64,000 nucleotides of DNA from a bacterium (lineage in GTDB: Bacteria; Patescibacteriota; Minisyncoccia; Phycocordibacterales; UBA1006). The stretch's first letter is position 1, and the number at the start of each line of letters is the position of its first letter. The notes under the pieces were generated by a model. It made no database searches. It saw nothing but the letters and a program-made list of their open reading frames with translations, and was not told where the DNA came from. The stretch is from NCBI GenBank assembly GCA_037144045.1, contig JBAWXN010000003.1:7696-71695 (forward strand), given 5' to 3'. This document shows positions 2,875 to 55,463 of this stretch, piece after piece. The position numbers and the translations under genes were made by a program.

Positions 2875-4551
2875 ATGTCTATTACTCAAACCCTTAATCA
2901 GGCAATAACTATTGCGCTTGCAAACCTTGGAATTTCAGGGGTTGTTTTTACGTTAGAACACCCAACTGAATTGATACATGGGGACTTTGCGTGTAACGCA
3001 GCACTGGTTGCCGCGAAACAAGTAGGTAAAAATCCGCGCACGTTGGCCGATGATATTAAAATTGAACTAGAAAAACTTGAAATTCCTGAAATTGATTCGG
3101 TGGTAATTGCAGGTCCAGGATTTATTAATATCACCTTATCCAAAAAATTTTTCGTTAATTTGAATCACCAGATTGGTGAAACAGGGAATACTTTTGGTAA
3201 AACAACTATTCATGCTGGTAAAAAAGTACTTGTAGAACATTCGTCACCAAATCTTTTTAAACCGTTTCATATTGGACACATGATGAACAATGCGATTGGG
3301 GAATCGTTGGTGCGATTGATGCAATTTTCAGGAGCTGAAGTTGCAACGATGTCATTTCCGTCAGATATTTCACTGGGTGTAGCGAAAGCAATTTTTATCT
3401 TCCTTGAGAAAAAACCAGAAATTACAATCGAGTCTCTAGGTGATGCATATGTAGAGGGAACTAAAAGATATGAAGAGGATGAATCAGTTCATGCTCGTGT
3501 AAAAGAAATCGCAGATAATTTATACGGTAATGTAGATTCACCAGAATTAAGTGTATTCACTACATGCAAACACTTCAATATTAACTACTTTGAAAGTATT
3601 GTAGGAAAGCTTGGTTCACATTTTGATTCTTATATTTACGAAAGTGAAGCGGGGATAGTAGGTAAAGATCTTATTCTAAAAAACACTCCAGGTATTTTCA
3701 CCGAAAGTCAGGGTGCGATTGTGTATATTCCCGATGAATCTAAAAAAGGGCTCAATACCGCGGTGTTTATTAACAGTCAGGGAAATCCAACGTACGAAGC
3801 AAAAGATATTGGACTCCTTGATTTGAAGTTCGAACGAGTACACCCCGACTTGTCGTTATTTGTAACGGACCATGAACAAATTCCACACTTTAAAATCGTG
3901 TTGGATGCCGCAGAAAAAATTAATAAAAACTGGGTAGACAAATCAGTGCACGTACCCCATGGGCGTATGACGTTTAAAGGACAGAAAATGTCATCACGAT
4001 TAGGTGGAGTACCACTTGCCGTTGAAATGATTGAAGATGTGGCAATAGAAGCGAAGGCTCGCGCAAAAGATCCAGAACAGGTTAAACTTGCAGAATCAAT
4101 TGCGATTGCAGCAATCAAATTTGCAATTTTGCGTGCCAAGCCAGGACAGAATATTAATTTTGATCCGGAAACGTCGCTTTCATTTGAAGGTGATTCAGGG
4201 CCTTATTTGCAATATACGCATGCACGTATTTCAAGTGTTATTGAAAAAGCAGGTGAACAACAACTGATGCCTCAGTATTCAGAAGGCGAATCAATAGTAG
4301 ATGTTGAACGCATGGTTGCACAGTTTGAAACCGTGGTCGCTAACGCTATTAGTGAATACGCTCCACAATACGTCGTTACTTACTTACTGGAACTCGCTCG
4401 ATCGTTTAATTCGTTTTATGCAAGCAATAAAATTATTGATAGTGAACACGTAGAGCAATCACAGCATCGCCTTGCGATTGCGCAGAATGTGCAACAAGTA
4501 ATTAAGAATGGGTTACACCTCCTTGCTATTACGGCTCCGAATCGTATGTAA
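2875..4551 (+). CDS. argS: arginyl-tRNA synthetase
   Basis: 558 aa. Class I HIGH motif (PFHIGHMMN) and C-terminal MSSRLGG (KMSKS-like). Overall ArgRS architecture including the DALR anticodon-binding C-terminal region. Extended -10 TGCTAATGT lies 7 nt upstream of the ATG. Confidence 0.9.
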   Translation: MSITQTLNQAITIALANLGISGVVFTLEHPTELIHGDFACNAALVAAKQVGKNPRTLADDIKIELEKLEIPEIDSVVIAGPGFINITLSKKFFVNLNHQIGETGNTFGKTTIHAGKKVLVEHSSPNLFKPFHIGHMMNNAIGESLVRLMQFSGAEVATMSFPSDISLGVAKAIFIFLEKKPEITIESLGDAYVEGTKRYEEDESVHARVKEIADNLYGNVDSPELSVFTTCKHFNINYFESIVGKLGSHFDSYIYESEAGIVGKDLILKNTPGIFTESQGAIVYIPDESKKGLNTAVFINSQGNPTYEAKDIGLLDLKFERVHPDLSLFVTDHEQIPHFKIVLDAAEKINKNWVDKSVHVPHGRMTFKGQKMSSRLGGVPLAVEMIEDVAIEAKARAKDPEQVKLAESIAIAAIKFAILRAKPGQNINFDPETSLSFEGDSGPYLQYTHARISSVIEKAGEQQLMPQYSEGESIVDVERMVAQFETVVANAISEYAPQYVVTYLLELARSFNSFYASNKIIDSEHVEQSQHRLAIAQNVQQVIKNGLHLLAITAPNRM

Positions 4552-5939: not shown

Positions 5940-6107
5940 ATAATATTATTTTATGGAAGGAATTGGAAAGAAAATAAAAAACGGATTGATGTATACTGCA
6001 TTTCTTGCGGGTATTGTCTTGGAAAAGAAGGTTTAGAAAACTTAAATAGTTCAACTAAACTTGATAGTAAGAAAAATCAGACTACGGTTAACGTACCAGT
6101 CAGGGAT

Positions 6108-6881
6108 GTGATCACCAATGATGTTGTAAGTAATGTGTCAGCAGAGTCGACAGAAAATGTGTATCTTTTTAAAGATGACGATGGGACACTTATTAATCCT
6201 AATAAGCAAACAAAATCAGAACCTGAAAAGCTCTGGTTGTTAAATTTTCTTAAATCAGAAACATATAAAAACAAAGCTCACGCAGAAGGATTAACGGATA
6301 AAGATATTCAAGAAAGAATTAAACGCCTAGAAAATACGCCTATTTTTAAAAAGAATGTAGAACATTTTGCAAGCGGGTCAGACGGATATACAACATTATC
6401 TGATTATAATGGTAAACCAATGCCTACTATCAGTATCGCTACAGCAAACCCTGAAAAAGTTCCTGCTACGATTATTCATGAAGGGGAACACGCGGCAACT
6501 CATGGAAATAGTAGATTAAGTAAACGTGCTAAGGCGTTATACGAGGAATCATTTAATAAAGATAATATATATTCGAATAATAAAAAATACGAATCCTACT
6601 TACGTGACTACACGGAGCGAGATGCACGGAAAAGAGAACTTGAGTTTGAAGCCGAAAAACTCGGAATTATAAAAGCTGGGCAAAAAATAACAGTAGATGA
6701 TTATCAAAAAATAATGAAGGCATATGAAGAGGGTAAGTTTGATTATGGTGCAAATCAATTTATTGAAACAACTAAACCGGAATATTTTATTAAAGTAATG
6801 AACGAAATTGCAGATAATCAAGAAATTCAGAATCATAACGACGCGCCGCCCTATAATTTACCGACAGAACAACAAGGATAA
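6108..6881 (+). CDS. hypothetical protein with HExxH (HEGEH) putative metallopeptidase motif
   Basis: 257 aa with GTG start. IIHEGEHAATHG contains HExxH. No signal peptide. Confidence 0.45.
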   Translation: MITNDVVSNVSAESTENVYLFKDDDGTLINPNKQTKSEPEKLWLLNFLKSETYKNKAHAEGLTDKDIQERIKRLENTPIFKKNVEHFASGSDGYTTLSDYNGKPMPTISIATANPEKVPATIIHEGEHAATHGNSRLSKRAKALYEESFNKDNIYSNNKKYESYLRDYTERDARKRELEFEAEKLGIIKAGQKITVDDYQKIMKAYEEGKFDYGANQFIETTKPEYFIKVMNEIADNQEIQNHNDAPPYNLPTEQQG

Positions 6882-6924
6882 GGCTCTTTACATGGAGGGC
6901 TTTTTTCGTTATAGTGATTTTGTG

Positions 6925-7140
6925 AGGCAATGATCCGACTAATCACCGGGGAGCACTTGAAAGAAATTCCTTTAAGGAAAAGTAGATTCAGGCGGGTAAG
7001 CCCGATATAGCGGTAATAAGGGCCGGCAAAAATGCGCAGCATTTTTGCCGGCCAAACCAAGGTGGTACCACGATTTCTAGATACCAAAAGAAACTCGTCC
7101 TTGAAGCATGACTTGTGTCGTGTTTCGCGGACGAGTTTTT
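6925..7140 (+). promoter_or_regulatory. T-box riboswitch leader (Ile-specific) with intrinsic terminator, upstream of ileS
   Basis: T-box sequence AACCAAGGUGGUACCACGA at 7054-7072 (consensus AAnnnGGGUGGnACCGCG). Antiterminator can form as A1 CAAGG/CCUUG, 7-nt bulge UGGUACC (UGGU pairs with tRNA ACCA, discriminator A as in tRNA-Ile), A2 ACGA/UCGU. The competing terminator is ACUCGUCC...GGACGAGU + UUUUU (7092-7140). A strong Stem III hairpin GGCCGGCAAAAAUGC-GCAGC-AUUUUUGCCGGCC lies immediately 5'. Candidate specifier AUC-A at 6942-6945. Confidence 0.65.
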
Positions 7141-7159
7141 ATTTACTTATTTATTTACT

Positions 7160-10100
7160 ATGAACCCAAACCCAAACAAATCACTCAACGCACTCCAAGA
7201 AGAAGCACTGCTTCAATTTTGGCGTGACAACAATATTTTCCAAAAAACACTCGAGAAAAAACTAGAGCCTGGTGCTGATCAAGGTGAATATACGTTCTTC
7301 GAAGGTCCACCAACGGCAAATGGACGTCCAGGTATTCACCATGTCGCTGCGCGGTCGTTCAAAGATATTATTCCGCGGTATAAAACCATGCGTGGTTTTC
7401 GTGTGAATCGAAAAGCGGGTTGGGATACTCATGGGTTGCCGGTAGAGCTTCAAGTAGAAAAACAATTGGGACTCAAGTCTAAAAAAGAAATTGAAAACTA
7501 TGGAGTAGAACTATTCAATCAAAAGTGTCGCGAAAGTGTTTGGGAATATAAAGACGAATGGGAAAAGATTACCGAACGTATGGGATATTGGTTAGATATG
7601 GAACATCCATACGTAACCTATGATAATGGGTACATCGAAGCATTGTGGGCAACCGTAAAGCGCGCAAATGAACGGGGACATCTGTATAAGGATTTTAAAA
7701 TCCTTCCGTGGTGTACACGATGTGGAACGGCGCTTTCGTCACATGAACTCAATCAACCCGGTGCATACAAAGAAGTGAAAGACCTTTCCGTGTTTGCAAA
7801 ATTTCCTATTGTTGGCTTTGAAAAAGCATATTTCCTTGCATGGACTACAACTCCTTGGACGCTTCCAGGAAATGTAGCGCTTGCGGTAGGTGCTGATATC
7901 GACTATGTAGAAGCCAAAGTAGGTGGTGAAATTTTAGTACTCGCCAAAGAACTGACAAAAATACTCCCTGAAGGATTTGAAATTATTGCAGAACATAAAG
8001 GATCTGAAATGGTGGGGATGTATTACGAACCCCTGTTTCCATTTATGAAAAACTTGGTAAAAGATCAAGACGAAAAAATGGAAAAAGCGTATCAGGTATA
8101 TGCAGCTGATTTTGTTACTACTACTGACGGAACAGGAATTGTGCACACGGCAGTGATGTACGGAGCAGATGACTTTGAACTAGGAACTAATATCGGATTG
8201 CCAAAGTTCCACTTAGTGAACGAAGAAGGAAAATTCATTGATGGTTGTGATACTGATACCCTTAAATTATTAGGTCGCTACGTAAAAGAATCAGATGAGA
8301 AAGGCAAACCAACCCTTGCAGTAGATATTATCGATAGTCTCACCGCTCGAGGATTGTTGTTCAAGAAAGAAAATTACGTACACAGCTATCCGCATTGCTG
8401 GCGATGTGATACCCCGCTTATTTATTACGCGCGAGGATCATGGTATTTTGCAATGTCGAAATTACGACAGCAATTATTGGATGCTAACCAAAATATTCAT
8501 TGGGAGCCAGAACATATCAAGGAAGGTCGTTTCGGTGAATGGCTCGATGGTATTAAGGACTGGGCTATTTCACGTGATCGCTATTGGGGAACCCCTATTC
8601 CTGTATGGCAAACAGAAGACGGTCTTGAAAAAGTGGTCATTGGAGGAATTGAAGACTTGAAAACCTATACAAAAAAATCAGGTAATAATTTCTATGCGAT
8701 TCGTCACGGGCAAGCGCATAGTAATACCACGAATACCTGGGATTGCGGACGTGATCCAGAAAATCACCTTACCGACCTAGGGCATGAACAAGTACTTGCT
8801 GCAGCACAAGCGCTTAAAGAAAAAAAGGTGGATGTCATCATCGCATCACCATTTTTAAGAACTCAAGAAACTGCAGCGATAATTGCAAAGGAATTAGGAG
8901 TTAATGAAGCAGATATTGTTACTGATGAACGCCTTGCAGAATGGAACGTAGGAACAGAATTTGACCGCAAGTCACTCGATTATTTCTTCGATGTACGTAA
9001 TAAATCACATGATCGCTATTCGTTTGAATCCCATGAAGGGGAATCATTTGCAAATGTTATTAAACGAGTAGGGGAATGTGTCTATGAAACTGATGCGAAA
9101 TACGCAGGTAAAACAGTGTTATTTGTAGCGCATGGGTCATCGATCCGGGCCCTTGAAATTGTTGCAGAAGGGTTCACGTTTGAAAAAATGTTGAAACGAG
9201 AAGCGAAGCATTTGAATTATAAAAACGCCGAATTCCAAAAGATTGCATTTAGTCGATTGCCCCATAATCAAAACTATGAACTTGATTTCCATAAGCCGTA
9301 TATTGATCAAGTAGAACTTGAATTAAATGGTAAAAAAATCATGCGAACTCCGGAAGTAATGGATGTGTGGTTTGATTCAGGTGCGATGCCGTATGCGCAG
9401 CACCATGTCCTTGGTGAACCGATGGATTTCTCACCGACACCGGCAGATTATATTGCAGAAGGGGTAGATCAAACACGAGGATGGTTTTATACGATGCATG
9501 CGATTGCGAACATGATGAATGACATTCCGACGAATAACTACAAAAATGTTATTTGTATGGGGTTACTCCTTGATGCGAATGGACAAAAAATGTCTAAATC
9601 AAAGGGGAACGTGGTTGCCCCATGGGAGGTATTTGATAAGTATGGTGCAGACGTCGTACGGTTTTGGTTCTATTCAGTAAACCAGCCTGGTGAAGCAAAG
9701 AACTTTGATGAAAAATCATTAGATGAAGTAAACAAGAAAGTATTTAATATTTTGCGAAACGTGGTTTCGTTTTACGAGATATACAAGCCAGAAGAATTTC
9801 CTTGGGTAAATCCATTTGATAGTACTAATGTGCTTGATCAATGGATGCTTGCGAAACTTCAAAACTTATCACAAGTATTGGTTACGAATCTTGATACCTA
9901 CAAAGTTATGGAATCCGCGCGAGCCATCCGTGATTTTGTTACAGAATTATCTACGTGGTATGTGCGTCGCAGTCGTGATCGATTTAAATCACCTGATGAG
10001 GCTGATAAAAACTTTGCATTAGTTACTCTACAGTTTGTACTTGATAACCTTGCGCGATACATGGCACCATTTACACCATTTATTGCAGAAGAAATCTATC

Positions 10101-10630
10101 AAAAAGTTCGAGTACACAAATTCCAAGAATCAGTACATTTGGAAACGTGGCATACTTGGAATGATGAGTCACGATTTAGTGGAACCATAGAACCTATGGA
10201 TCAGGTACGCGAACTCGTAACGCTTGGGCTTGATGCACGTCAAAAGGTTAATATTAAAGTACGACAGCCGCTTGCAACACTAAGTATCTCATCTGAATAT
10301 AGAAACCTAGGAGTGGATTATTTAGATATCCTCAAAGAAGAACTTAATGTTAAAGAGGTAGTGATTGATGATAGTCTAGAAAAAGGTAAGGCTATCCTTG
10401 ATACTGAAATTACTCCAAAGCTTCAAGCAGAAGGGGATATGCGTGAAATCGTTCGCGCTATTCAGGAAATGCGTAAGGAGACTGATTTAGTACCAAGTGA
10501 TAAGGTTATTGTTTCATTAACCAGTGCACAGCCAGAATGGTTTAATGAACTTAAAAATGAATTACAAGGACTCGTTGGTGCACAAGACGTTGTGTGGCAA
10601 GCAGAATCCGATTCAGTAAAAAAGGTGTAA
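7160..10630 (+). CDS. ileS: isoleucyl-tRNA synthetase (type 2) carrying an inserted histidine-phosphatase (PGM-family) domain
   Basis: Class I signatures (NGRPGIHHV HIGH region, KMSKS = KMSKSKG) and a CP1 editing region. The IleRS-specific WCWRCDTP ... ISRDRYWGTPIPVW ... HKPYIDQVEL...TPEVMDVWFDSGAMP resembles Thermus-type IleRS. Between KKSG and EFQKIAF lies ~190 aa with RHG (AIRHGQAHSN) and second-His (VAHGSSIRAL) motifs of the histidine phosphatase superfamily. The ORF-track start at 7115 lies inside the T-box terminator, so the start is taken at ATG 7160 (MNPNPNK). Confidence 0.9.
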   Translation: MNPNPNKSLNALQEEALLQFWRDNNIFQKTLEKKLEPGADQGEYTFFEGPPTANGRPGIHHVAARSFKDIIPRYKTMRGFRVNRKAGWDTHGLPVELQVEKQLGLKSKKEIENYGVELFNQKCRESVWEYKDEWEKITERMGYWLDMEHPYVTYDNGYIEALWATVKRANERGHLYKDFKILPWCTRCGTALSSHELNQPGAYKEVKDLSVFAKFPIVGFEKAYFLAWTTTPWTLPGNVALAVGADIDYVEAKVGGEILVLAKELTKILPEGFEIIAEHKGSEMVGMYYEPLFPFMKNLVKDQDEKMEKAYQVYAADFVTTTDGTGIVHTAVMYGADDFELGTNIGLPKFHLVNEEGKFIDGCDTDTLKLLGRYVKESDEKGKPTLAVDIIDSLTARGLLFKKENYVHSYPHCWRCDTPLIYYARGSWYFAMSKLRQQLLDANQNIHWEPEHIKEGRFGEWLDGIKDWAISRDRYWGTPIPVWQTEDGLEKVVIGGIEDLKTYTKKSGNNFYAIRHGQAHSNTTNTWDCGRDPENHLTDLGHEQVLAAAQALKEKKVDVIIASPFLRTQETAAIIAKELGVNEADIVTDERLAEWNVGTEFDRKSLDYFFDVRNKSHDRYSFESHEGESFANVIKRVGECVYETDAKYAGKTVLFVAHGSSIRALEIVAEGFTFEKMLKREAKHLNYKNAEFQKIAFSRLPHNQNYELDFHKPYIDQVELELNGKKIMRTPEVMDVWFDSGAMPYAQHHVLGEPMDFSPTPADYIAEGVDQTRGWFYTMHAIANMMNDIPTNNYKNVICMGLLLDANGQKMSKSKGNVVAPWEVFDKYGADVVRFWFYSVNQPGEAKNFDEKSLDEVNKKVFNILRNVVSFYEIYKPEEFPWVNPFDSTNVLDQWMLAKLQNLSQVLVTNLDTYKVMESARAIRDFVTELSTWYVRRSRDRFKSPDEADKNFALVTLQFVLDNLARYMAPFTPFIAEEIYQKVRVHKFQESVHLETWHTWNDESRFSGTIEPMDQVRELVTLGLDARQKVNIKVRQPLATLSISSEYRNLGVDYLDILKEELNVKEVVIDDSLEKGKAILDTEITPKLQAEGDMREIVRAIQEMRKETDLVPSDKVIVSLTSAQPEWFNELKNELQGLVGAQDVVWQAESDSVKKV

Positions 10631-10782: not shown

Positions 10783-11730
10783 ATGAATATTCAAAAAATC
10801 TATCTTCGAGATATTGTTTTTAGTGGACTTCATGGTGCGACTGGTATCGAATTAGAAGTTGCTCAGCGTTTTCAAGTAGACGTAACTATTACGTTTAACG
10901 CACTTCCTTCGATTCGTTCTGAAAAATTAGAAGACACGATCGATTATTTCGATGTTATTAGATGCGTTCGTAGTCACATCGAAAATAATTATCGTAAACA
11001 TATACTCCTTGAAACATTAGTAGATGAAATTACCGATGATATTGCGCGAACATTTCCGTGTCACAAGATACGGTTAACCATTCAAAAACTAGACGTACCG
11101 TTTAAGCCACAAATTGGCACTACAAAAAACTACTTTACTGGTGCCCGTGTTCCAATAAGTTCATTTGAATACATTCACCAACAATTGGTTACTCAAGGAG
11201 CGGTGAGTATTCCATTCCTGACTCATGAAGAACGGGGAAGGCTTGTTGATGAAGCGAAAAAACTTGAATATATAAAACAACCAGAGCAAGCATTTGGAGG
11301 AATTGTCCGTGAAGAAGTTTCATCATGTTCAGTAAAAGACGAAGGAACGCCATTCTTTGAAATTGCAGATCGGGTAGCGCGATTCGTTACAGAATTATAT
11401 GCGGTAACTCATCAAGGTGTTCCTCGATTTCCAAAACCGCATGTAGCCCTTCAGAAATACGATGCAGGATCGATCGGGATTACCCCTCATCGTGACGAGA
11501 AAAAATACGGGTTAGCCATTGCCATCATACCTCTTATTGGGAAAGGTGATTTATCAATTTGTGATGATCGTGCAGGAACTAATCCAAAAAAACAGGATAC
11601 CACACCGGGAAATTTGATACTCCTTCGTGCTCCTGGATATGCGGGTATGCATGTCAGACCAATGCACGTTGTAAATAATATTTTGGAAGAACGTATTGTC
11701 CTTGGGGTGCGATTTCCAACTAACGAATAG
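10783..11730 (+). CDS. folB: dihydroneopterin aldolase (FolB) fused to a C-terminal ~190-aa domain of unknown function (possible HxD...H double-stranded beta-helix)
   Basis: The N-terminal 120 aa (IYLRDIVFSGLHGATGIELEVAQRFQVDVTI...DYFDVIR...LLETLVDEI) match the FolB/DHNA fold. The C-terminal part contains HRDE...MHVRPMH, reminiscent of the 2OG-Fe(II) oxygenase / cupin metal triad. Confidence 0.6.
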   Translation: MNIQKIYLRDIVFSGLHGATGIELEVAQRFQVDVTITFNALPSIRSEKLEDTIDYFDVIRCVRSHIENNYRKHILLETLVDEITDDIARTFPCHKIRLTIQKLDVPFKPQIGTTKNYFTGARVPISSFEYIHQQLVTQGAVSIPFLTHEERGRLVDEAKKLEYIKQPEQAFGGIVREEVSSCSVKDEGTPFFEIADRVARFVTELYAVTHQGVPRFPKPHVALQKYDAGSIGITPHRDEKKYGLAIAIIPLIGKGDLSICDDRAGTNPKKQDTTPGNLILLRAPGYAGMHVRPMHVVNNILEERIVLGVRFPTNE

Positions 11731-11731
11731 T

Positions 11732-13006
11732 ATGAATAAGCATGCAGTGTATTTATCATTAGGGAGCAATATGGGTAATCGACTGGGTTACATCCATGAA
11801 GCATTGCGACACCTTAAGCAAGGTATGATTGTAGATCAGGTATCATTTCTCTATCAAACAGACCCTGTAGGATTTACTGATCAAGATGCGTTCTTGAATT
11901 GCGTATGTAAATGCAGTACTGATAAACAACCTAATGAGCTTCTGAAATTACTTGAAATGATCATGGCTACTATGGGCCGGGTTCGTGCGATAAAATGGGG
12001 GCCAAGGATTATTGATATAGATATTTTGTTGTACGACGATCTAGTAGTTACCACTGAATTGCTAACTATTCCACATCCACGTATGCATGAACGCGCTTTT
12101 GTGCTTGAACCGCTGTGTGATATTAATTCTGTTATGATTCATCCAGGCTATGGTAAAACAGTGCGCGAATTGTTGGATAGTCTCAATGAATTACCACTTC
12201 AGAAAGTTTCACAAATAGGCAATAAGATATTTGAGTGGGGGAAGCGAACGCATGTATTAGGAATTGTGAACGCAACCCCTGATTCGTTTTCAGGTGATGG
12301 CATTATGCATAAAACAGAGGATGAATGGGTTCAGGGTGCACAGCAATTAGTTTTGGATGGAGCCGATTGTTTGGATATTGGTGCTATGTCGACTAGACCA
12401 GGACACGATTTGATTTCTGAAGATGAAGAACTAAGGAGGCTTATTCCAGTACTTCGAGCCATAAGACCACATGTGACTACTCCAATTTCAGTAGACACGT
12501 TTAGGCCATCTGTTGCGCGGGCTGCTATTAATGCAGGTGCTGACATGATTAATAGTATCTGGGGTGCAGAATACGATCCAGGTATCCTTGATGTGGTTAT
12601 AGAAAAAGAAGTTGCGCTAGTGCTTACTGTTAACAGATCAGTAACTGATTATTATTCAAGTGAAAAAACCTTGATGCAAATGATTCAGGATGCGCAAACT
12701 GCTGGTATATATCCTTGGAATATTATCGTTGATCCAGGAATTGGATTCGTACAACACACGGAAGACAACTATGAAATTATAAAAAATATTCCAGCTATTG
12801 CTGCATATGGTTACCCGGTATTAGTTGGAGCATCACGTAAAAAATTTATAAGGCAGATTGCGGGTACTACTGATAATAACGCATTAGTAATTCCTAATGT
12901 TGTTGCGCACGTTATCATGGCACGTGCTGGGGCAACAATGGTTCGGGTCCATGACGTGGCTGCTGTAGTTGATGGGTTGCGTATATCTGATACACTAGGG
13001 ATATGA
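11732..13006 (+). CDS. folKP: bifunctional HPPK-dihydropteroate synthase (FolK-FolP fusion)
   Basis: N-terminal AVYLSLGSNMGNR...WGPRIIDIDILLYDD...HPRMHERAFVLEPL is the HPPK signature. C-terminal GIVNATPDSFSGDG...DIGAMSTRPG...VGASRKKFI matches the pterin-binding DHPS domain. Start taken at ATG 11732, just after the folB stop. Confidence 0.85.
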   Translation: MNKHAVYLSLGSNMGNRLGYIHEALRHLKQGMIVDQVSFLYQTDPVGFTDQDAFLNCVCKCSTDKQPNELLKLLEMIMATMGRVRAIKWGPRIIDIDILLYDDLVVTTELLTIPHPRMHERAFVLEPLCDINSVMIHPGYGKTVRELLDSLNELPLQKVSQIGNKIFEWGKRTHVLGIVNATPDSFSGDGIMHKTEDEWVQGAQQLVLDGADCLDIGAMSTRPGHDLISEDEELRRLIPVLRAIRPHVTTPISVDTFRPSVARAAINAGADMINSIWGAEYDPGILDVVIEKEVALVLTVNRSVTDYYSSEKTLMQMIQDAQTAGIYPWNIIVDPGIGFVQHTEDNYEIIKNIPAIAAYGYPVLVGASRKKFIRQIAGTTDNNALVIPNVVAHVIMARAGATMVRVHDVAAVVDGLRISDTLGI

Positions 13007-13547: not shown

Positions 13548-14120
13548 ATGTCGTACGCAATCTATAAAACCGAAGCAATTATTTTAAGGCTTATTCCAGT
13601 AGGTGAGGCAAATATGGATGTGGTAGTGTTTACTCAATTATTTGGGAAAATAACAGTTCGTGCCCAATCAGTGCGTAAGCAAGAATCAACCATGCGTATG
13701 TTTTTAACGCGGTTTCGGGTAGTAACGATTGATGTGGTTCGCGGAAAATCAGTATGGCGACTTACTGGAATATCGAGCACGGTGCCGCAAACCCTGTTTC
13801 AAGAAGAAGTCCTCCTGCAGTCCAGTTACCGCATGTTTCGTCTTGCTGAATTTCTTGTTCAAGGAGAATTGCCGCATCCTGAGTTATTCGCGTTTTTTAA
13901 AAAAGTCGTAACGCTATCACGGACAGAAATTCCACAATCACCAAAAGGGTTTGAAATTTTTTGTATCATCTCTATCCTTGAACATTTAGGATACTGGAGC
14001 GGTTCGTGGTTGCGGGGTGAATTATCACAAGAACGGTACGCATCGTGTTACACACAACGCGCAGAACTGGTTAAAAAAATAAACGAAAGTATTTCAGCGA
14101 GTCAGATTATGATATACTAA
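13548..14120 (+). CDS. recO: RecO-like DNA repair protein (short form)
   Basis: N-terminal AIYKTEAIILRLIPVGEANMDVVVFTQLFGKITVRAQSVRK resembles the RecO N-terminal OB-fold consensus. 190 aa is shorter than typical RecO. Confidence 0.4.
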   Translation: MSYAIYKTEAIILRLIPVGEANMDVVVFTQLFGKITVRAQSVRKQESTMRMFLTRFRVVTIDVVRGKSVWRLTGISSTVPQTLFQEEVLLQSSYRMFRLAEFLVQGELPHPELFAFFKKVVTLSRTEIPQSPKGFEIFCIISILEHLGYWSGSWLRGELSQERYASCYTQRAELVKKINESISASQIMIY

Positions 14121-14126
14121 CTTTAT

Positions 14127-16037
14127 ATGATCGATGATGAACACAGTAACTTACGGAAAGTTGCCCGGGAATTATATACTACTGACATTAAGCCGCCTAC
14201 GCGGCGTTCTGTGCTTCATGAAGAAAAGGTGGTTTCAACAGATGATTGGAAAAGTGGTGGTATTATTAACTCACCAACGGTTACTATGCAAAAACCCGTG
14301 AAAACAACTTCATTTTTTAGAAACATCTTTCTCGCCTCGCTTTGTTTTTTGGTGATAGCAATAATTGTACTAGGTGCGAGTTTTATAAATGGAGGAAATA
14401 CTATTTCAGAAAACAATGTAGATATCGCAATTACTACAAAAACATTCGTTGATGGTGGTGAATCATTACCAGTTGAAGTTACTCTGGTAAATAAAAACAA
14501 GCTTGGATTAGAGCTTGCAACATTGGTTCTTGAATATCCTCAAGGGAGTGATGATAATTCGGGGACGATGGGGCGTATTGAACGTGAAATTGGAAGCCTT
14601 GCAGCAGGTGCCAGTCGACAAGAATCTTTTGTAGTTCAATTATACGGTACGCAAAATTCACAGCGAAATATTACGGCTCGCATCGAATTCCGGGTTCAAG
14701 GATCAAACGCGGTCTATGATAAAGACCAGTCAACGGTAGTAACCATTAGAACTTCGCCAATTACCATTACCCTTACTGCTCCTGATAAGGCAATTCCTAA
14801 TCAGGAAATCCCCCTTAAATTTACTATTATTGGAAATGGAACTGCGACACTTCCTAATACCGCAATGGTGTTGCAATACCCTGACGGATTTACGTTTGCT
14901 CGCGCAGAACCTTCGCCAACATTTGGAAGTACGGTTTGGTTTTTAGGTGATGTGCCACCCGGGGTAAATAGAACTATTACGGTGTATGGAAGTCTCGCGG
15001 GAAGTATTACCGATTTGAAAACCATTCGGGCGTCAGTTGGATCGCAAAATGCAAGTAATGAACAATTACTCGACACAACCTATAATGCACTGGCTCAAGT
15101 GATTCCGTTATCAAACGCATTCCTCGATGCATCTATTGCCGTTGCTAATCAGACCGGTACTACTATTCCTATTGCAAGTAACCAGCAAGTACGCGTGCGC
15201 ATCCCATTCAAGAACACGTTGTCGGTTCCACTTACTAATGTGCAATTAGCTGTTTCTTTATCAGGTTCTGCGTATGATCCAAGTCTTGTAGAGCCTATTA
15301 GTGGATTCTTCGATTCAGTAAATAATAAAATCCTGTGGACCAAACAACAGGATCCATCACTTGATGCTATTAATCCTGGTGAAACAGGGGATGTCACGTT
15401 CTCGATTCGACCACGAGTCCTTACTGGGACGAGTGCAGCAACGAATCCGGTAATCAAAGTTTCACTTGATGTATTAGGGTACCAAGCAGGTGGTGCGAAG
15501 CTTACTGCAGAAGGAATCGATACGAAAACATTTACGGTGAATTCTGATTTAACACTTCTTGCACGAACAATTCATTATACGGGAGCTTTGCAGAACACGG
15601 GACCAATGCCACCAATTCCTAACAAGGAAACAACGTATACCCTTGAGTTTAAAATCACTAATACCCGTAATCGAGTAACCGATGCTGTGGTTACTACAAC
15701 GCTACCGACGTATGTTACGTGGAAAAATGTTATGTTGCCTCAGGCAGAAACAAATAATGTTTCTTATAATGAAGTAACGCGCCAGTTGATTTGGAACGTC
15801 GGCGATGTTCCGGCGGGTACAGGATCGACAACAGGACCGCGAATGCTGTCGCTTAAGATTGGAATCACTCCTTCGACCCAACAATCGGGTGGAGTACCAC
15901 TGCTTACTGATTCGATTGTGTTAACGGGTAAAGACGCCTTCACAAACCAAGACCTTACCATTACTAAATTACCACTCAGTACTCAACTATTGAACGATGG
16001 TAAAGGAGCTGGGGTAGATGGTGCGGTTGGACGTTAA
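14127..16037 (+). CDS. large single-pass membrane protein with repeated beta-rich extracytoplasmic domains (DUF11/CARDB-like)
   Basis: 636 aa with a TM segment near aa 65-88 (FFRNIFLASLCFLVIAIIVLGASFI), followed by repetitive T/S/V/N-rich segments. Confidence 0.5.
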   Translation: MIDDEHSNLRKVARELYTTDIKPPTRRSVLHEEKVVSTDDWKSGGIINSPTVTMQKPVKTTSFFRNIFLASLCFLVIAIIVLGASFINGGNTISENNVDIAITTKTFVDGGESLPVEVTLVNKNKLGLELATLVLEYPQGSDDNSGTMGRIEREIGSLAAGASRQESFVVQLYGTQNSQRNITARIEFRVQGSNAVYDKDQSTVVTIRTSPITITLTAPDKAIPNQEIPLKFTIIGNGTATLPNTAMVLQYPDGFTFARAEPSPTFGSTVWFLGDVPPGVNRTITVYGSLAGSITDLKTIRASVGSQNASNEQLLDTTYNALAQVIPLSNAFLDASIAVANQTGTTIPIASNQQVRVRIPFKNTLSVPLTNVQLAVSLSGSAYDPSLVEPISGFFDSVNNKILWTKQQDPSLDAINPGETGDVTFSIRPRVLTGTSAATNPVIKVSLDVLGYQAGGAKLTAEGIDTKTFTVNSDLTLLARTIHYTGALQNTGPMPPIPNKETTYTLEFKITNTRNRVTDAVVTTTLPTYVTWKNVMLPQAETNNVSYNEVTRQLIWNVGDVPAGTGSTTGPRMLSLKIGITPSTQQSGGVPLLTDSIVLTGKDAFTNQDLTITKLPLSTQLLNDGKGAGVDGAVGR

Positions 16038-16746: not shown

Positions 16747-18105
16747 ATGGAACAGAAGGATTTGATGGAAAAATTGGTCTCGCTCGCGAAACGCCGCGGG
16801 TTTATTTATCAAGGATCTGAAATTTATGGAGGACTTGCAGGTACTTGGGATTTTGGTCCACTTGGGGTCGCGCTTAAAAATAATATTAAAAATGCGTGGC
16901 GAAAGAAATTTATCGAGTCTCGCGAAGACATGTACGAGGTAGATGCGGCTCTTTTGATGAACCCAAAAGTTTGGGAAACTTCAGGGCATGTGTCAGGATT
17001 TTCTGATCCACTCGTTGAATGTACTAAATGCCAGCATCGATTTCGTGCAGATCAATTAGTAGATCCAAAAGTATGTCCAGATTGTGGAGGCGCTCTTGGA
17101 GAATCTCGTCAGTTCAACATGATGTTCAAGACGCAAGTAGGAGCTATGGAAGACTCAGCATCTACGGTATATTTCCGACCTGAAACAGCGCAAGGAATGT
17201 TTGTAAACTTTAAAAATATCCTCGATTCATTTGCACCTAAATTACCATTTGGTATGGCGCAAATTGGAAAGGCGTTTCGTAATGAAATTACTCCAAAAGA
17301 TTTCGTGTTCCGTGTTCGCGAATTTGAACAAATGGAAATTGAATATTTTATCAAACCTCCAAAGACCGATGCAGAATGGCAAGAAAAATTTGAAGAACTG
17401 CGCAGTGCGATGATTGGGTGGATGGATGAAATTGGTATTGATACTAATAAGGTTCATGAGTTAAAAGTAGAAGGTGATGATCTAGCACACTATTCAAAAG
17501 CTACTACTGATTTCGAATTTGATTTCCCATTCGGACGCAAAGAACTCTATGGGCTTGCGTACCGAACGGATTTCGATTTGAAAGCACACAGTGAAGCAAG
17601 TGGCGTAAAGCTCGAATATTTTGATCAAGACGGTGAAACAGAATCTGACAAACGTTTCATTCCCCACGTTATCGAACCATCATTCGGAGTAGAGCGAACC
17701 GTACTCGCAATTCTTACCAGTGCGTATCGTGAAGACATGCAAGGTGAAGAACCTCGTAGTTACCTCGCATTTAAACCAGCGATGGCTCCTATTGTGTGTG
17801 CCGTATCACCACTCCTTAAAAATCGTCCAGAACTCCAGGAAAAAGCGCGCGAAGTATTTAAAACACTTAAGCAAGAATTCGGACGAGTAATGTACGATGA
17901 TAACGGAAACGTGGGAAAACGTTATCGCCGACAGGATGAAATTGGAACTCCTTGGTGTATCGTAGTTGATTTCGATACGATTGGTATGGGTGAAAATATT
18001 AATCCAGATTTCAAAGATATGGTTACGATTCGTGATCGTGATACTGGAAATCAGGAACGCGTTGCTATTGCAGATTTGGTGAACTATATCAAATCAAGGA
18101 TGTAA
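16747..18105 (+). CDS. glyQS: glycyl-tRNA synthetase, alpha2 (archaeal/eukaryal-type) form
   Basis: 452 aa. N-terminus GFIYQGSEIYGGLAGTWDFGPLGV, class II motifs, zinc-knuckle CTKCQHRF...CPDCGG, and the C-terminal anticodon-binding domain. Extended -10 TGCTATAGT lies 9 nt upstream of the ATG. Confidence 0.9.
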   Translation: MEQKDLMEKLVSLAKRRGFIYQGSEIYGGLAGTWDFGPLGVALKNNIKNAWRKKFIESREDMYEVDAALLMNPKVWETSGHVSGFSDPLVECTKCQHRFRADQLVDPKVCPDCGGALGESRQFNMMFKTQVGAMEDSASTVYFRPETAQGMFVNFKNILDSFAPKLPFGMAQIGKAFRNEITPKDFVFRVREFEQMEIEYFIKPPKTDAEWQEKFEELRSAMIGWMDEIGIDTNKVHELKVEGDDLAHYSKATTDFEFDFPFGRKELYGLAYRTDFDLKAHSEASGVKLEYFDQDGETESDKRFIPHVIEPSFGVERTVLAILTSAYREDMQGEEPRSYLAFKPAMAPIVCAVSPLLKNRPELQEKAREVFKTLKQEFGRVMYDDNGNVGKRYRRQDEIGTPWCIVVDFDTIGMGENINPDFKDMVTIRDRDTGNQERVAIADLVNYIKSRM

Positions 18106-18141: not shown

Positions 18142-18822
18142 TTATTTATCTCGGACCAGCTTCTTTTTCTTGTCCGAATAGTGATAAGTGATCATTCCGG
18201 TGTTAGGAAGGTCAGGAGGAATATTTTTATAATGCGCATGGGTCCAATTTTCCAAAAGTGACTGCATAGCAACAATGGCGCGACCATGCGCAACGAGGAG
18301 TACATTTTTACCTTCGCATAGTTGTGCAAGTTGTGTGAAAAATACATCAAGTCTGATTGCGGTATCAGCAAGACTTTCACCGCCGGGGGGTCGGGTAAAG
18401 AATTTATCTCCGAGATTCCAGACCTCGGTATTCCAGGGGAAGTAATTATTTACTTCGTCTTGAGTCATCAGATAAGCCCATCCGGCATCACGTTCACGGA
18501 GGGCGCTATTTTCCATGATGGTGGTAGTTGCCAGTGAGTCTTTAGGGAACTGGGATATGATTCCGTCCATAGTTTGCCGAGTTCGTAAATATCCTGAATT
18601 AATAATAATATCGAACTCAGAGTATTTTTTCTTAAGAACCTTACCGGCAGCTTTTGCCTGCTTATGACCTTTTGCCGTAAGTGCAATGTCTTGATTAAGA
18701 GTGTTACCAAGTTTGCTGCGTTCTTGCTCTGTATAGAAAACACCTTTTTTACCGCGGTTACGTTCCGATTCCGCATGACGAATAAGGACCAAATTTTTTG
18801 GCTTTAATAACAAGTGATGCAT
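18142..18822 (-). CDS. histidine phosphatase superfamily protein (phosphoglycerate mutase-like)
   Basis: LIRHAESERN (RHG-type catalytic His motif), LTAKGHKQA, LRTRQT, GGESL and LLVAHGRAI second-His motif. Confidence 0.7.
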   Translation of the reverse strand: MHHLLLKPKNLVLIRHAESERNRGKKGVFYTEQERSKLGNTLNQDIALTAKGHKQAKAAGKVLKKKYSEFDIIINSGYLRTRQTMDGIISQFPKDSLATTTIMENSALRERDAGWAYLMTQDEVNNYFPWNTEVWNLGDKFFTRPPGGESLADTAIRLDVFFTQLAQLCEGKNVLLVAHGRAIVAMQSLLENWTHAHYKNIPPDLPNTGMITYHYSDKKKKLVRDK

Positions 18823-51684: not shown

Positions 51685-52589
51685 CCCCTCGTCTCACAAA
51701 TTTTCTACCTTCTTGGTCTGATCAAATGTGGGAGACAGATCATTGTCAACTTCATGCGTTGCCCGAAGCATTTATTGAGGTATTTTTTCTCTATGAAAAT
51801 TTAGAAAAAATATTTACGTTATCCCGCTTCGGAGCACGATTGAGAAATAATACAGGCGAATTTTGCACAAGTGCAGAATTCAAGTATTTTTTACCAAGCA
51901 AATAAAAGAACAGTTCTAAAAAAAATTTAGAACAACCCGCCTCATCGGCGGGTGAAAAAGTCTCCGCCGGAAAGGCGGAGCAAAATAAAAAGTCCTTTCT
52001 ATAATGGTTATAGAAAGGCGAACACACAAAGATGTGTTTACTTGTGATTTTTAGATTTCCTAATAGGAGTCTAAGGGCGTAGTAGTGGATGCCTTGGTTC
52101 ATGGAAGCGATGAAGGACGCGACAGCCTGCGATAAGGTTCGGGGAGCTGGCAATAAGCTTTGATCCGGACATTTCCGAATGAGGAAACTCATTGGGGGTT
52201 ATACCCCAATATCTGACAGCTGTCAGATGCTAACCTAGGGAAGTGAAACATCTCAGTACCTAGAGGAATAGAAAACAATAGTTATTTCCTGAGTAGCGGC
52301 GAGCGAAACGGAAGGAGCCCAAACCAAGTTGATCGCGTAGTGTTTGATAGATTTATTTATCGAAACCTACGCGATACATTTGGGGTTATAAGACGAGAAC
52401 GTCATTTAGTTGAGAAGAGTTACAAATTCATGTGTTAGATTAAGTATCTGGGAAGATACGGCATAGAGGGTGATACCCCCTTGATCGAAAACGCTATGAA
52501 CTCTTTTGTTCACGCTCTTGAGTACTTCGAGACACGAATAGCTCGGAGGAATTTGCCGGAACTAACCGGTAAGGCTAAATATTCCATGA

Positions 52590-52635
<46 letters not shown>

Positions 52636-53213
52636 GGAGAGGGGAGTGAAATAGATCTGAAACCCTACGCCTACAAGGAGTCGGAGCGGCAATTTATTGT
52701 CCGTCACGGCGTGCCTATTGAAGAATGAGCCAACGAGTTATAGCATGCGGCAGGCTAAGCGCTTTAAATGCGTGGAGCCACAGCGAAAGCGAGTCTGAAT
52801 AGGGCGAAATTTATGTCGTATGCTATAGACCCGAAGCCAGGTGATCTACCCATGGACAGGTTGAAGTTCCGCGAAAGCGGAATGGAGGACCGAACCAATA
52901 AGCCGTGCAATACTTTTGGATGATCTGTGGGTTGGAGTGAAAAGCTAATCGAACCTGGTAATAGCTGGTTCTCTCCGAAACAGCTTTTGGGCTGGCGTCG
53001 AGCGTTCCCTTTGGGGGTAGAGCACTGGATGGTCTTGACAGGGAGCAATCTCGCAAGACCTACCAAACTCCGAATACCAAAGGCCACAGCTCGGCAGTTA
53101 GACAGTGGGGGCGAAGCTCCACGAGTCAAAACGGAAACAGCCGTAGATCTCAAATTAAGGTCCCTAAATTCATGTTAAGTACACTTAAGGAGGTTAGATT
53201 TCTTCGACAATGA

Positions 53214-53245
<32 letters not shown>

Positions 53246-54038
53246 GAAAGCGTAACAGCTCACTCATCAAGAGATCTAGCGCCGCAAATAATCGGGGTTA
53301 AACATGATACCGAAGTTGAGGATGCATTATTCCCTCGGGAGTAATGCGTGGTAGGAGAGTATTCGCATCTGCGATGAAGCCGAAGGCGTGAGCCACGGTG
53401 GAGCGTTGCGAAGCAAGAATGTTGGCACAAGTAACCACAAGACACGTGAAATCCGTGTCCGCCGAAAAGTCAAGGTTTCCTATTCAATGTCAATCAGAGT
53501 AGGGTTAGTCGGGCCTAAGGTAATGGCGATAGCCGGAACCGATGGACACATGGTTAATATTCCATGACTTCTCATAGGGCGATGGAGAGACGGAGAAAAC
53601 AAGCATATGCGCATTATTGGATTTGCGTTCGTGCATCGAGGTTCGTAGCTTAGGAAAATCCGGGCTACATAAGAACCGTGGTGAGCGAAAATTTTTGGCT
53701 TCGGCCTGAGAAATATATGTGAAGAGTCTTCCGAGAAAATCTTCTAGCTTAACCTATGAGAAACCGTACCGCAAACCGACACAGGTGACTAGCTCGAGTA
53801 GAGTAAGGCGAACGAGTGAGGGATCCTCAAGGAACTCGGCAAAAAAGCGGCCGTAACTTCGGAATAAGGCCTGCCTCTTGCAAAAGAGGCCGCAGCGAAA
53901 GTCTCCCTGGCGACTGTTTATCAAAAACACAGCTCCCTGCTAAATCGTAAGATGATGTATAGGGGGTGACACCTGACCAATGCCAGAAGGTTAAATAATG
54001 GCGGTGCGATTATATCAAGCTGACTGTTATAAGCCCTG

Positions 54039-54081
<43 letters not shown>

Positions 54082-54741
54082 ACCTTGTCGGGTAAGTTCC
54101 GACGCGCACGAATGGTGTAACGACTGGGGAACTGTCTCGAGGATTTGCTCGGTGAAAATACAATACCGGTGAAGATGCCGGTTACCTGCAGTTAGACGAA
54201 AAGACCCCGGAAGCTTTACTATAGCTTTACATTGGGCATATTTTTTTATTGCGTAGCATAGGTGGGAGAGGTTATGTACACGATCTTGGTTGTGTAATAC
54301 TCAACAGTGAAATACCACTCTGTAACGAGATATGTCCTAACTTGGTCGAAAAAACGATCAAAGACAGTGTATGGTGGGTAGTTTGTTTGGGGCGAATCCC
54401 TCCTAAAGAGTAACGGAGGGGCCTACAAAGGTTATCTAGGCGTGAATGGAAACCATGCCGATAGTGTAATGGCACAAGATAGCTTGACTGCAAGTCGTAC
54501 ATGACGAGCAGGTGCGAAAGCAGAGCATAGTGAACCGACTTTAGCCTTTAGACGGCGAAGAAGATCAACGGATAAAAGCTACTCCGGGGATAACAGGCTA
54601 GTTTCGCCCGAGCGTCCACAGCGACGGCGAAGTTCGGCACCTCGATGTCGGCTCATCATATCCTGGGGCTGGAGAAGGTCCCAAGGGTTTGGCTGTTCGC
54701 CAATTAAAATGATACGCGAGCTGGGTTCAGACCGTTAAGTG

Positions 54742-55463
54742 TTTTTCATGATAACTCCTGTTGTCGCGAAGAGCATTTTACAGTCTGAATCCACGAGGAC
54801 ACAACTGTTAAAACCAAAAGGTACACGCCTTTTCAAAACGTGATGTTATAAGTTTTTTCGTTTAATAAAAAGTCTTTAAACTGGTGTATAGAAATATGCC
54901 AAGAATAAAGCAAAAAGATAGAAATTAAATCTATTATTATTTGTGAATTTCATAGAGGAAAATTTCCTCATGTTCTTTAAGACCTCACCGAGGCATTGCG
55001 AGAGTAATCTCAGGGTGACCGAGTATATATGTACGCAAATAACACTTCGGTGTTACTAGGTCAAAATGTCGGGTCTCAGGTCTGCGTACGCACACCTGAA
55101 AACTTAAATTGGTCGTGTGGCCGAGTGGCTAGGCACAGGTCTGCAAAACCTGGTACGAAGGTTCGAATCCTTCTGTGACCTCGAGTAGTAAGCATTATTT
55201 AAATGCTTACCTCTTCTATGAAATTCATAAATATACAATAGGTTTAAAAGTAGTATCAACCAATAATTGCGGCGGTCTCATATGGTGACATATGAAGACA
55301 TGTTCAACTTATATCGGTGAAATCCCACTCGTAACAAACGAAGGACGACCCCGAGGGAATTCCAAGAGTAATCAAGGATGCCCGTAGAGACTAAATGTTG
55401 AAAATCTCATTGAGATTAAGTTATAGTCCATTGCTTACAGTAATGTAAGAAAACAAGCGCAAG
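54742..55463 (+). mobile_element. group I intron (ORF-less) in 23S rRNA at the position homologous to E. coli ~2593, carrying a nested tRNA-like gene
   Basis: rRNA colinearity breaks after ...GCTGGGTTCAGACCGTTAAGTG and resumes at AGACAGGTTGGTCTCCTATCTACTGCAGGCG. Core elements in the 3' third are Q-like AATTGCGGCGG (55265), R-like GTAGAGACTAAATG (55384) and S-like AAGTTATAGTCC (55418), giving P7 GACTA/TAGTC. No ORF longer than 60 aa inside. Boundaries are +/- 5 nt. Confidence 0.7.
55111..55181 (+). tRNA. tRNA-Cys (anticodon GCA) embedded in the 23S group I intron, no encoded CCA
   Basis: Hand-folded cloverleaf: 7-bp acceptor stem GGTCGTG/TGTGACC (3 G-U), U8, A14, G18G19, 3-bp D stem, anticodon stem CAGGT/ACCTG with loop CT-GCA-AA, 4-nt variable loop, T arm GAAGG-TTCGAAT-CCTTC. 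Discriminator U73 is the tRNA-Cys identity element. Confidence 0.7.

Follow-up and report, generated by a model that had tools for sequence, protein, structure and literature searches.

A predicted histidine phosphatase nested in the third connective peptide of type-2 isoleucyl-tRNA synthetases from candidate phyla radiation bacteria

What is a complete phosphatase doing inside an isoleucyl-tRNA synthetase (IleRS)? The question is raised by a stretch of 64,000 nucleotides (hereafter the window; positions 7,696 to 71,695 of contig JBAWXN010000003.1, assembly GCA_037144045.1) from a bacterium of the lineage UBA1006 in the order Phycocordibacterales of the Patescibacteriota. Its ileS gene was reported in a preliminary description, made from the sequence alone, to encode a type-2, Thermus/eukaryote-like IleRS with a histidine-phosphatase domain inserted in frame into its catalytic core. 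Profile searches bear out both parts of that claim. The Pfam domain His_Phos_1 (PF00300) is matched with an E-value of 2.2e-32 between the two halves of tRNA-synt_1, and the NCBIfam model for ileS, TIGR00392, is matched with 863 bits at a cut-off of 621, which identifies the host protein as an IleRS. Both parts belong to well-known families; what is unusual is that a complete foreign enzyme is nested in the third connective peptide (CP3) of a class Ia synthetase. On balance, we favor the reading that the window protein is bifunctional, i.e., an IleRS that includes an active phosphomonoesterase with a functional tie to the synthetase.

The host enzyme looks fully functional, to judge from its conserved motifs and domains. 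It is encoded by an uninterrupted open reading frame (ORF) at 7115..10630 on the forward strand, which is the continuous frame of 1171 amino acids (aa) noted before and of which the longest form begins with GTG at 7115. The true start is probably the ATG at 7160 (M16), which yields a product of 1156 aa, because a 100% identical database protein (P0001) has this length and because residues 1-18 are modeled with a predicted local distance difference test score (pLDDT) below 50. Pfam splits tRNA-synt_1 into two parts, i.e., aa 32-519 and a C-terminal part, with PF00300 in between, and also finds a C-terminal domain of the DUF5915 type (PF19302). Conservation extends to the anticodon-binding and C-terminal domains, as seen with Pfam and in the alignment of homologues. 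The best solved matches are the IleRS2 of Priestia megaterium and the IleRS of Thermus thermophilus; the IleRS2 structures and 1ILE score 740-748 bits and the type-1 structures 8C9E, 8C9F, and 1FFY 288-296 bits, while the MupA and MupB models give 703-738 bits. By these comparisons, the window enzyme is classified as a type-2 IleRS, as had been proposed.

The class I signature of the protein is non-canonical. The aligned motif reads PGIHHV in the window protein, PHVGHA in T. thermophilus, and PGVHHA in the Priestia IleRS2 structure 8C8W, and H75 and H76 of the GIHH sequence are invariant among 72 homologues. The order of residues equals that in 8C8W, which is entitled "mupirocin hyper-resistant HIGH motif mutant". 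By analogy, the GIHH signature may confer intrinsic resistance to mupirocin-type inhibitors. The WTTTPWT block in CP1, the editing domain, is presumably the threonine-rich motif of the IleRS editing site, and editing would, on that assumption, be retained. An Rfam search of the whole window found no T-box or other leader ahead of ileS.

Where in this enzyme is the extra domain located? In the alignments, window residues 519 and 723 correspond to residues 480 and 488 of the T. thermophilus enzyme, and window residues 518 and 717 to residues 477 and 480 of P. megaterium IleRS2. About 200 window residues stand where solved IleRS have a loop of at most seven residues (seven in Thermus and two in Priestia). 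The preliminary description had put about 190 extra residues at 8689-9255. The region was correct, but the coordinates were one base out of frame (in frame, they read 8690-9256, i.e., aa 526-714), and the extent of the insertion, when measured against solved IleRS, has to be revised to aa ~520-722, corresponding to nucleotides 8672-9280 (Table 1). The segment starts with a conserved linker, KKSGN, which is followed by the complete histidine-phosphatase domain of ~190 aa and a conserved exit, NAE..F..LPHNxxYE. The linker positions K520, N524, F712, P716, N718, and E722 are nearly invariant in the 72 homologues.

In yeast and Candida IleRS, the published boundary of CP3 lies directly after the ...SRNRYWG linker (PMC7955072; PMC7191050). 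Since these boundaries let CP3 begin there, the insertion site falls within CP3, and the alignment places it at the tip of this subdomain, a connective peptide that interrupts the Rossmann fold in its second half. Thus, the earlier wording "inside the catalytic core" was roughly right, but it does not apply to the core strands themselves. The secondary structure of the first half of CP3 in the AlphaFold model consists of two β-strands (residues 497-500 and 506-508) and a helix (residues 512-518). There are two levels of nesting: the inserted domain sits in a subdomain, which in turn sits in the catalytic domain. The CP3 of the Thermus enzyme bears a zinc motif (PMC7191050). In the alignment, CxxC-type cysteines flank the insertion point on both sides in the Thermus and Priestia enzymes, where the site separates the two halves of a Zn-knuckle hairpin, whereas the window protein has none.

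The motifs quoted in the preliminary description, including those with both catalytic histidines, are all present where it had placed them: ISRDRYWGTPIPVW at aa 485-498, IRHG at 529-532, SPFLRTQET at 578-586, HEGES at 640-644, VAHGS at 671-675, LDFHKPYIDQVEL at 723-735, DVWFDSG at 750-756, and KMSKS at 825-829. The PF00300 match far exceeds its cut-off of 21.7 bits and covers profile positions 2-175 of 194, and when the insert is scanned alone, the E-value is 6e-34. The catalytic residues were inspected in the 120 best homologues, which were drawn from NCBI, JGI, ENA, and Logan assemblies, and are listed in Table 1. Other sites are less strictly conserved, such as G532 (in 114 of the 120) and N537 (in 112). 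In a wider set, the arginine and the histidine of the RHG motif are found in all 212 IleRS-embedded copies that have a residue at those columns. The full protein was modeled by AlphaFold2 with a pLDDT of 88.7 and a predicted template-modeling (TM) score of 0.81; the insert itself reaches a pLDDT of 90-97, and the model is confident over both junctions. The domain modeled in isolation (pLDDT 86) was matched by Foldseek with a probability of 1.00, TM-scores of 0.70-0.75, and 18-25% identity to 6S2Q, 4IJ5, 9MMH, 1H2E, and 6E4B. The nearest solved folds are those of glucosyl-3-phosphoglycerate phosphatase (GpgP), the phosphoserine phosphatase PspA, the riboflavin-pathway HFP, PhoE, and CobC.

Profile, catalytic residues, and α/β/α fold all agree with branch 1 of the histidine phosphatase superfamily (PF00300). 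Within this branch, no named family could be assigned. When tested alone, the insert remains below the curated cut-off of all named NCBIfam models that match it, including the equivalogs for cofactor-dependent phosphoglycerate mutase (dPGM) and the pgm_1 subfamily. For dPGM, the scores are 72.7 bits at a cut-off of 225 (NF038349), 37.4 at 81.7 (TIGR01258), and 61.7 at 316 (NF002339). The corresponding values are 76 at 163 for CobC, 59 at 350 for PspA, 43 at 74.5 for SixA, and 46 at 261 for GpmB. Three residues past E609, the insert has a valine, where dPGM presumably has a tyrosine (E-R-H-Y-G). The insert is best described as a predicted phosphatase-type (small-cap) member of branch 1 without a match to any named family. 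The domain is mildly acidic with a mean net charge of -6. As all parts of IleRS are acidic as well, charge and isoelectric point were dropped as indicators of RNA binding.

Table 1. Coordinates of the ileS gene, its nested domain, and neighboring features in the window.
Feature	Position	Strand	Basis or remark
ileS, type-2 IleRS with nested phosphatase	7160..10630	+	1156 aa
Class I signature, non-canonical G-I-H-H instead of H-x-G-H, aa 73-76	7331..7342	+	alignment
CP1 (editing domain) block WTTTPWT, aa 243-249	7841..7861	+	invariant in 72 homologues
CP2-CP3 linker and first half of CP3 (ISRDRYWGTPIPVW, β-hairpin, helix IEDLKTY)	8567..8671	+	alignment, AlphaFold
Inserted segment, aa 520-722 (~200 aa)	8672..9280	+	boundaries relative to 1ILE and 8C8W
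Pfam His_Phos_1 PF00300, aa 527-701	8693..9217	+	112.7 bits, E 2.2e-32
RHG motif, R530, H531, G532	8702..8710	+	R and H in 120/120
R582, second phosphate-binding arginine (SPxxRxxET)	8858..8860	+	120/120
E609, predicted general acid	8939..8941	+	120/120
H673, second catalytic histidine (VAHGS)	9131..9133	+	120/120
Second half of CP3 (LDFHKPYIDQVEL..., β-hairpin) into DVWFDSG, re-entering the Rossmann fold	9281..9382	+	alignment, AlphaFold
KMSKS, aa 825-829	9587..9601	+	invariant among homologues
argS, conserved upstream neighbor of ileS	2875..4551	+	43/81 related loci
recO-like, conserved downstream neighbor of ileS	13548..14120	+	53/81 related loci
Separate free-standing histidine phosphatase, 226 aa	18142..18822	-	PF00300, E 7e-29

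How widespread is the nested arrangement? Of the 120 homologues that match best (53-100% identity, 925-1231 aa), 119 carry both PF00133 and PF00300 with the same architecture. A scan with two junction motifs, in which each species was represented by one genome, found a relative in at least 361 species genomes; as the scan leans to KKSGNK[YF] and PLPHN, divergent lineages are undercounted in this number. The taxa named among the 361 are Paceibacteria/Paceibacterota, Nomurabacteria, Zambryskibacteria, Kaiserbacteria, Adlerbacteria, Minisyncoccia, and the "Parcubacteria group", and the genomes include deposits of the earliest data sets of the candidate phyla radiation (CPR). An exhaustive HMMER search with the insert only retrieved IleRS hosts with cores that are just 33-40% identical to the core of the window enzyme. 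Because such distant hosts also bear the insert, the arrangement is old and widespread. The mean identity of the 120 homologues to the query is 42% in the insert vs. 72-76% in the Rossmann, editing, and CP regions, and the length of the insert is held at 199-216 aa. The pattern of conservation indicates purifying selection on the nested arrangement across Paceibacteria/Parcubacteria. The GC content is 0.39-0.44 over positions 8400-9450, without a break across the insert. The segment, which begins with KKSGNNFY and ends with LPHNQNYE|LDF, gave no match to a Hint domain, and the phosphatase fold covers it entirely. Its ends also lack the residues typical of inteins, namely an N-terminal Cys or Ser and a C-terminal His-Asn with Cys, Ser, or Thr next to it.

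The architecture had been called unfamiliar for any aminoacyl-tRNA synthetase. This holds for the literature, as no description of a phosphatase-nested IleRS was found in the full texts of PMC and bioRxiv (subscription-only papers were outside the reach of this search), but not for the databases, where the architecture is common and occurs in valyl-tRNA synthetase (ValRS) as well. As far as can be told, it has long been visible there with automatic domain hits, yet uninterpreted. Many of the insert-bearing IleRS and ValRS (P0001, P0061, P0070, P0100, P0404, P0415, and others) are named "class I tRNA ligase family protein" by the NCBI pipeline; some nested IleRS are annotated as "isoleucyl-tRNA synthetase", and relatives without the insert appear as "valine--tRNA ligase". 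With such generic names, IleRS or ValRS may seem to be absent when the metabolism of CPR bacteria is reconstructed automatically.

The ValRS hosts, one of them encoded at 6001-9240 of locus L081, are instructive. The ValRS P0229, which is encoded on a 78.5-kb contig, has the domain order tRNA-synt_1, His_Phos_1, tRNA-synt_1, Anticodon_1, and Val_tRNA-synt_C. About half of its 120 best relatives bear the phosphatase domain, and the remainder, of ~870 aa, are without it. Where a taxon name is given, the domain-bearing ValRS are from Falkowbacteria, Komeilibacteria, Peregrinibacteria, the Parcubacteria group, and unclassified Patescibacteria. Alignment of these enzymes reveals a clean insertion at the tip of a short CP3 hairpin (VWYKGD|EIYVG), and in ValRS with two CxxC knuckles, the insertion falls between the knuckles. 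In another ValRS lineage (P0273), the domain is located in a different loop, after DTWFSSGLWTFSTLGWP.

The domain has also been multiplied. Two tandem copies are present within CP3 of some IleRS, and others contain one copy in CP3 and one past the KMSKS region, ahead of the anticodon domain. Among the synthetases with several copies, P0159, P0163, P0175, and P0214 have two in tandem, and P0198 and P0181 have the domain at two sites. Four phosphatase stretches are found in P0125, a truncated class Ia fragment that resembles ValRS more than IleRS. In certain ValRS, the insert arrays span 304-692 aa, and the 1750-aa ValRS P0452 contains at least two to three phosphatase copies. The catalytic residues are retained in all array copies looked at, and all five were found in eight of eight ValRS-embedded copies, including both members of tandem pairs. 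Because the pairwise distances between embedded and free-standing domains are saturated (1.0-1.5), they allow no reliable tree or direction of transfer.

Other domains are found in CP3 of ValRS as well. The tip carries an α/β serine hydrolase (PF06821) with an intact GHSLG elbow in P0423 and P0500, an ASCH domain (PF04266, E 1e-6), which is PUA-like and RNA-associated, in P0443, P0458, and P0461, and a 76-aa segment without family assignment in P0436. The CP3 tip is a general insertion hotspot in CPR ValRS. Histidine phosphatases closely related to the insert are also fused to TsaC/Sua5, which functions in t6A synthesis, in four clusters of CPR proteins (P0193 and P0276-P0278). These fusions were considered as a second link to tRNA; they are real, but they are rare and were given little weight, since TsaC is fused to many unrelated domains in CPR bacteria, including MGMT-type DNA-binding, TruB, 2H phosphoesterase, NUDIX, GNAT, and DNA glycosylase domains.

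Further evidence comes from the gene neighborhood. Among free-standing proteins, those closest to the insert have ~190 aa and 30-39% identity, and they share an N-terminal NxYYxLRHG and a C-terminal GE.R.L strand with it. Their genes sit in the same argS-...-ileS-recO block that surrounds the nested form. Seven of these relatives were sampled. In six of them, an insert-less ileS is located within 2.6 kb of the phosphatase gene, and in four, the phosphatase gene ends 1-17 nucleotides upstream of the insert-less ileS on the same strand. The IleRS of these four cases are 931-968 aa long where the gene is complete, and in one of them (L082), which was read through CP3, the zinc knuckles are kept. 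In one further case, the phosphatase gene abuts ileS in convergent orientation, and in another, four small genes, two of which encode NUDIX proteins, lie between the two. The IleRS of the latter case (L089 7129-8564, also L090) is 1204 aa long, and its CP1 harbors, shortly ahead of WTTTPWT, a nested NUDIX domain whose Nudix box is intact. The seventh relative is encoded on a 1.9-kb contig. At the 81 loci with the nested form, a second phosphatase gene was found within 4 kb in none. That the two proteins are fused in some genomes and encoded by adjacent genes in others is the strongest evidence available that the phosphatase and IleRS may cooperate.

The window contains a second histidine phosphatase gene at 18142-18822, as was noted before, but its product is only 29% identical to the insert. 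A recent paralogue was considered as the source of the insert and rejected, as this gene is not the nearest relative; it is best seen as a distant paralogue outside the IleRS module. It is convergent with a glycyl-tRNA synthetase gene at 16747-18105 on the forward strand (NF003211, 577 bits), at a distance of 36 nucleotides, and the window thus has a second phosphatase beside a synthetase gene.

What might the nested domain do? Probably, it is a working phosphomonoesterase with the standard chemistry of the superfamily, as its complete set of catalytic residues suggests. R530, R582, and H673 would hold the phosphate, which would be attacked by H531 to form a phospho-histidine. E609 would protonate the leaving group, and water would then free the phosphate. 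It also seems likely, albeit with less assurance, that this activity is linked to the synthetase and not incidental: genes for the closest free-standing relatives immediately precede insert-less ileS, ValRS has acquired the domain as well, both at the corresponding CP3 tip and in other loops, and duplications in place have occurred.

As to the substrate, only a tentative proposal can be made: possibly, the domain acts on a phosphate ester carried by a molecule of the nucleotide type that is handled at the aminoacylation site. The preliminary description had likewise speculated about a phosphorylated nucleotide or tRNA 3' end, an idea to which the proximity of free-standing relatives to ileS lends indirect support. 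The most attractive candidate would be a 2'- or 3'-phosphate on a damaged or toxin-modified tRNA 3' end that blocks charging; a nucleotide by-product would be an alternative. CP3 is bordered by the CP2-3 linker on one side and by DVWFDSG at the amino-acid pocket on the other. In the Thermus structure, the tryptophan of the latter motif acts at this pocket. The CP2-3 linker lines the pocket for A76 of the tRNA (PMC7955072), and toxSAS toxins are known to pyrophosphorylate the CCA end of tRNA, which stops charging (PMC11559606).

Several points weigh against a bifunctional enzyme with coupled activities. The nearest solved relatives of the insert in Foldseek searches are all small-metabolite phosphatases. 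No member of the histidine phosphatase superfamily is known to act on RNA ends, and the mild acidity of the domain does not suggest RNA binding. CPR proteins, TsaC for example, fuse promiscuously, which makes a fusion alone a weak sign of shared function, and close ValRS relatives without the domain exist. Furthermore, the neighborhood cases are not fully independent, as they represent one inherited argS-ileS-recO block.

The alternative that survives best holds that the domain is hitch-hiking, i.e., that an ordinary small-molecule phosphatase, such as one of broad specificity similar to PhoE, PspA, or CobC, is nested in an essential, steadily expressed protein of bacteria with reduced genomes and performs a chemistry unrelated to aminoacylation. 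This appears rather unlikely, but it is the most serious competitor. It would account for the resemblance to metabolite phosphatases, which extends from the nearest solved folds to the sequence families, for the existence of domain-free ValRS, and for the many seemingly arbitrary fusions in CPR bacteria, and the CP3 tip is evidently permissive, as it also takes an α/β-hydrolase and ASCH domains. However, a passenger would not be expected to recur as the same domain family in both IleRS and ValRS, in several loops, and in one to at least three copies, nor to have its closest free-standing relatives directly ahead of ileS. Also, the near invariance of the linkers and the scores of the insert below the curated cut-offs of the named families speak against an ordinary phosphatase in an arbitrary place.

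A non-catalytic role is a more doubtful option. The fold could serve as a scaffold that replaces the lost zinc knuckle of CP3, or it could bind a phosphate ligand, such as a nucleotide or the 5' phosphate of tRNA, and thereby tune IleRS. The window protein indeed lacks the CxxC...CxC cysteines that insert-less relatives retain in CP3, and CP3 adjoins both the A76-lining CP2-3 linker and DVWFDSG at the amino-acid pocket. However, a full catalytic set is superfluous for binding, and E609 and H531 are invariant in every copy, tandem copies included; moreover, some ValRS keep both zinc knuckles and yet carry the insert. The idea of an artefact (chimeric assembly or a frameshift between two genes) or of a selfish element (an intein or mobile insertion) has a single point in its favor, i.e., that the window stems from a metagenome-assembled genome (P0001 is labeled as such). 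Its probability is negligible because hundreds of independent assemblies, obtained from several sources, share the continuous architecture, and the GC content, the phosphatase fold that fills the insert, and the confident model at both junctions also speak against it.

A broader scheme can be envisaged, improbable as it is, in which class Ia synthetases of CPR bacteria carry built-in accessory hydrolases as a hitherto unnoticed layer of substrate repair or proofreading at the acceptor end of tRNA. Besides the histidine phosphatase of IleRS and ValRS, these would comprise NUDIX in the editing domain of IleRS as well as the α/β serine hydrolase and ASCH in CP3 of ValRS. In such a repair layer, the phosphatase would remove 2'- or 3'-phosphates from tRNA 3' ends and, thus, allow for recharging on the spot. 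Two sources of these phosphates are conceivable, namely RNases that form cyclic phosphates and toxSAS-type toxins that pyrophosphorylate tRNA, the latter if a NUDIX-like cleavage comes first.

Few enzymes have been studied as thoroughly as the aminoacyl-tRNA synthetases, and the domains added to them have repeatedly revealed new biology, including editing, signaling, and antibiotic resistance. In the present case, the catalytic domain of an essential synthetase houses another catalytic center, which appears to be active and is kept across a large part of the CPR. Its recurrence in ValRS and its conservation point to a poorly understood selective pressure on translation in tiny symbiotic bacteria. 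Candidates are damage to tRNA or attack by toxins, a need to clear nucleotide by-products, and detoxification of inhibitors.

Several other features of the window deserve mention. Between ileS and recO, at 10783-13006, lie folB and a folK-folP fusion. Similarity to FolB is confined to the first ~108 of the 315 aa encoded by folB, and the C-terminal 200 aa are without a family match. Folate synthesis has a phosphatase step without an assigned enzyme. A link of the phosphatase with folate was considered and ruled out, as folB adjoins ileS in just one of the 81 related loci and folKP in none, the conserved neighbors being argS and recO. Because of these same counts, folB and folKP look like a local insertion into the conserved block. 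The recO gene is followed by a 636-aa ORF (14127-16037) without a Pfam match, which is kept at this position in 46 of the 81 loci. Beside argS, in divergent orientation, a gene at 2304-2768 on the reverse strand encodes a HIT-family (HinT-like) protein, another nucleotide hydrolase by the synthetase cluster; HIT enzymes hydrolyze adenylated compounds. The rRNA region at 52061-55989 comprises a 23S rRNA gene (52061-54782, matching over 2722 nucleotides to a model of 2925 positions), a tRNA-Cys gene (55111-55182), and a 5S rRNA gene (55883-55989), the latter two being separated by a gap of ~700 nucleotides. Since no 16S rRNA gene was found in the 52 kb upstream of the 23S rRNA gene within the window, the rRNA genes appear to be unlinked.

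How does the nested enzyme compare with known systems? Solved type-2 IleRS (1ILE, 8C8U, 8C8V, and 8C8W) have the same order of Rossmann fold, CP core, CP1 editing domain, CP2, CP3, anticodon-binding domain, and C-terminal domain, and Foldseek aligns them to the window model with TM-scores of 0.74-0.83, normalized to the target. The 8C8W variant and the window IleRS share the GxHH signature, whereas the zinc-binding cysteine motif in CP3 of the solved enzymes is lacking in the window protein. No phosphatase domain was found in a solved aminoacyl-tRNA synthetase, either by alignment to solved IleRS or by Foldseek searches of the PDB. The phosphatases PhoE (1H2E), PspA (4IJ5), GpgP (4QIH and 6S2Q), HFP (9MMH), and CobC (6E4B) have the same fold, size, catalytic residues, and GES element as the insert. 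However, they are free-standing and have known small substrates, whereas the insert is nested in a synthetase and is only 18-25% identical to them.

Precedents for parts of the arrangement exist. The bifunctional RNase H/acid phosphatase (NF005567, PRK07238), which gives the insert its highest score among the NCBIfam phosphatase models (E 7.5e-23), also joins a branch-1 histidine phosphatase to a nucleic-acid enzyme. However, it is an end-to-end fusion of two domains and not a nested one, and with 81 bits at a cut-off of 326, the insert is not a member. Another curated IleRS with an extra catalytic domain is ileS_w_GNAT (NF040702), but there, the added domain is an N-acetyltransferase and the IleRS is of another lineage; the window protein scores 314 bits at a cut-off of 1999. 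Class Ia enzymes are known to grow via insertions in the connective-peptide loops of the Rossmann fold (PMC7191050; PMC7955072). The known modules of this kind, such as the CP3 zinc hairpin of IleRS and ValRS, are small non-enzymatic elements or the editing domain, whereas the module described here is a complete foreign enzyme.

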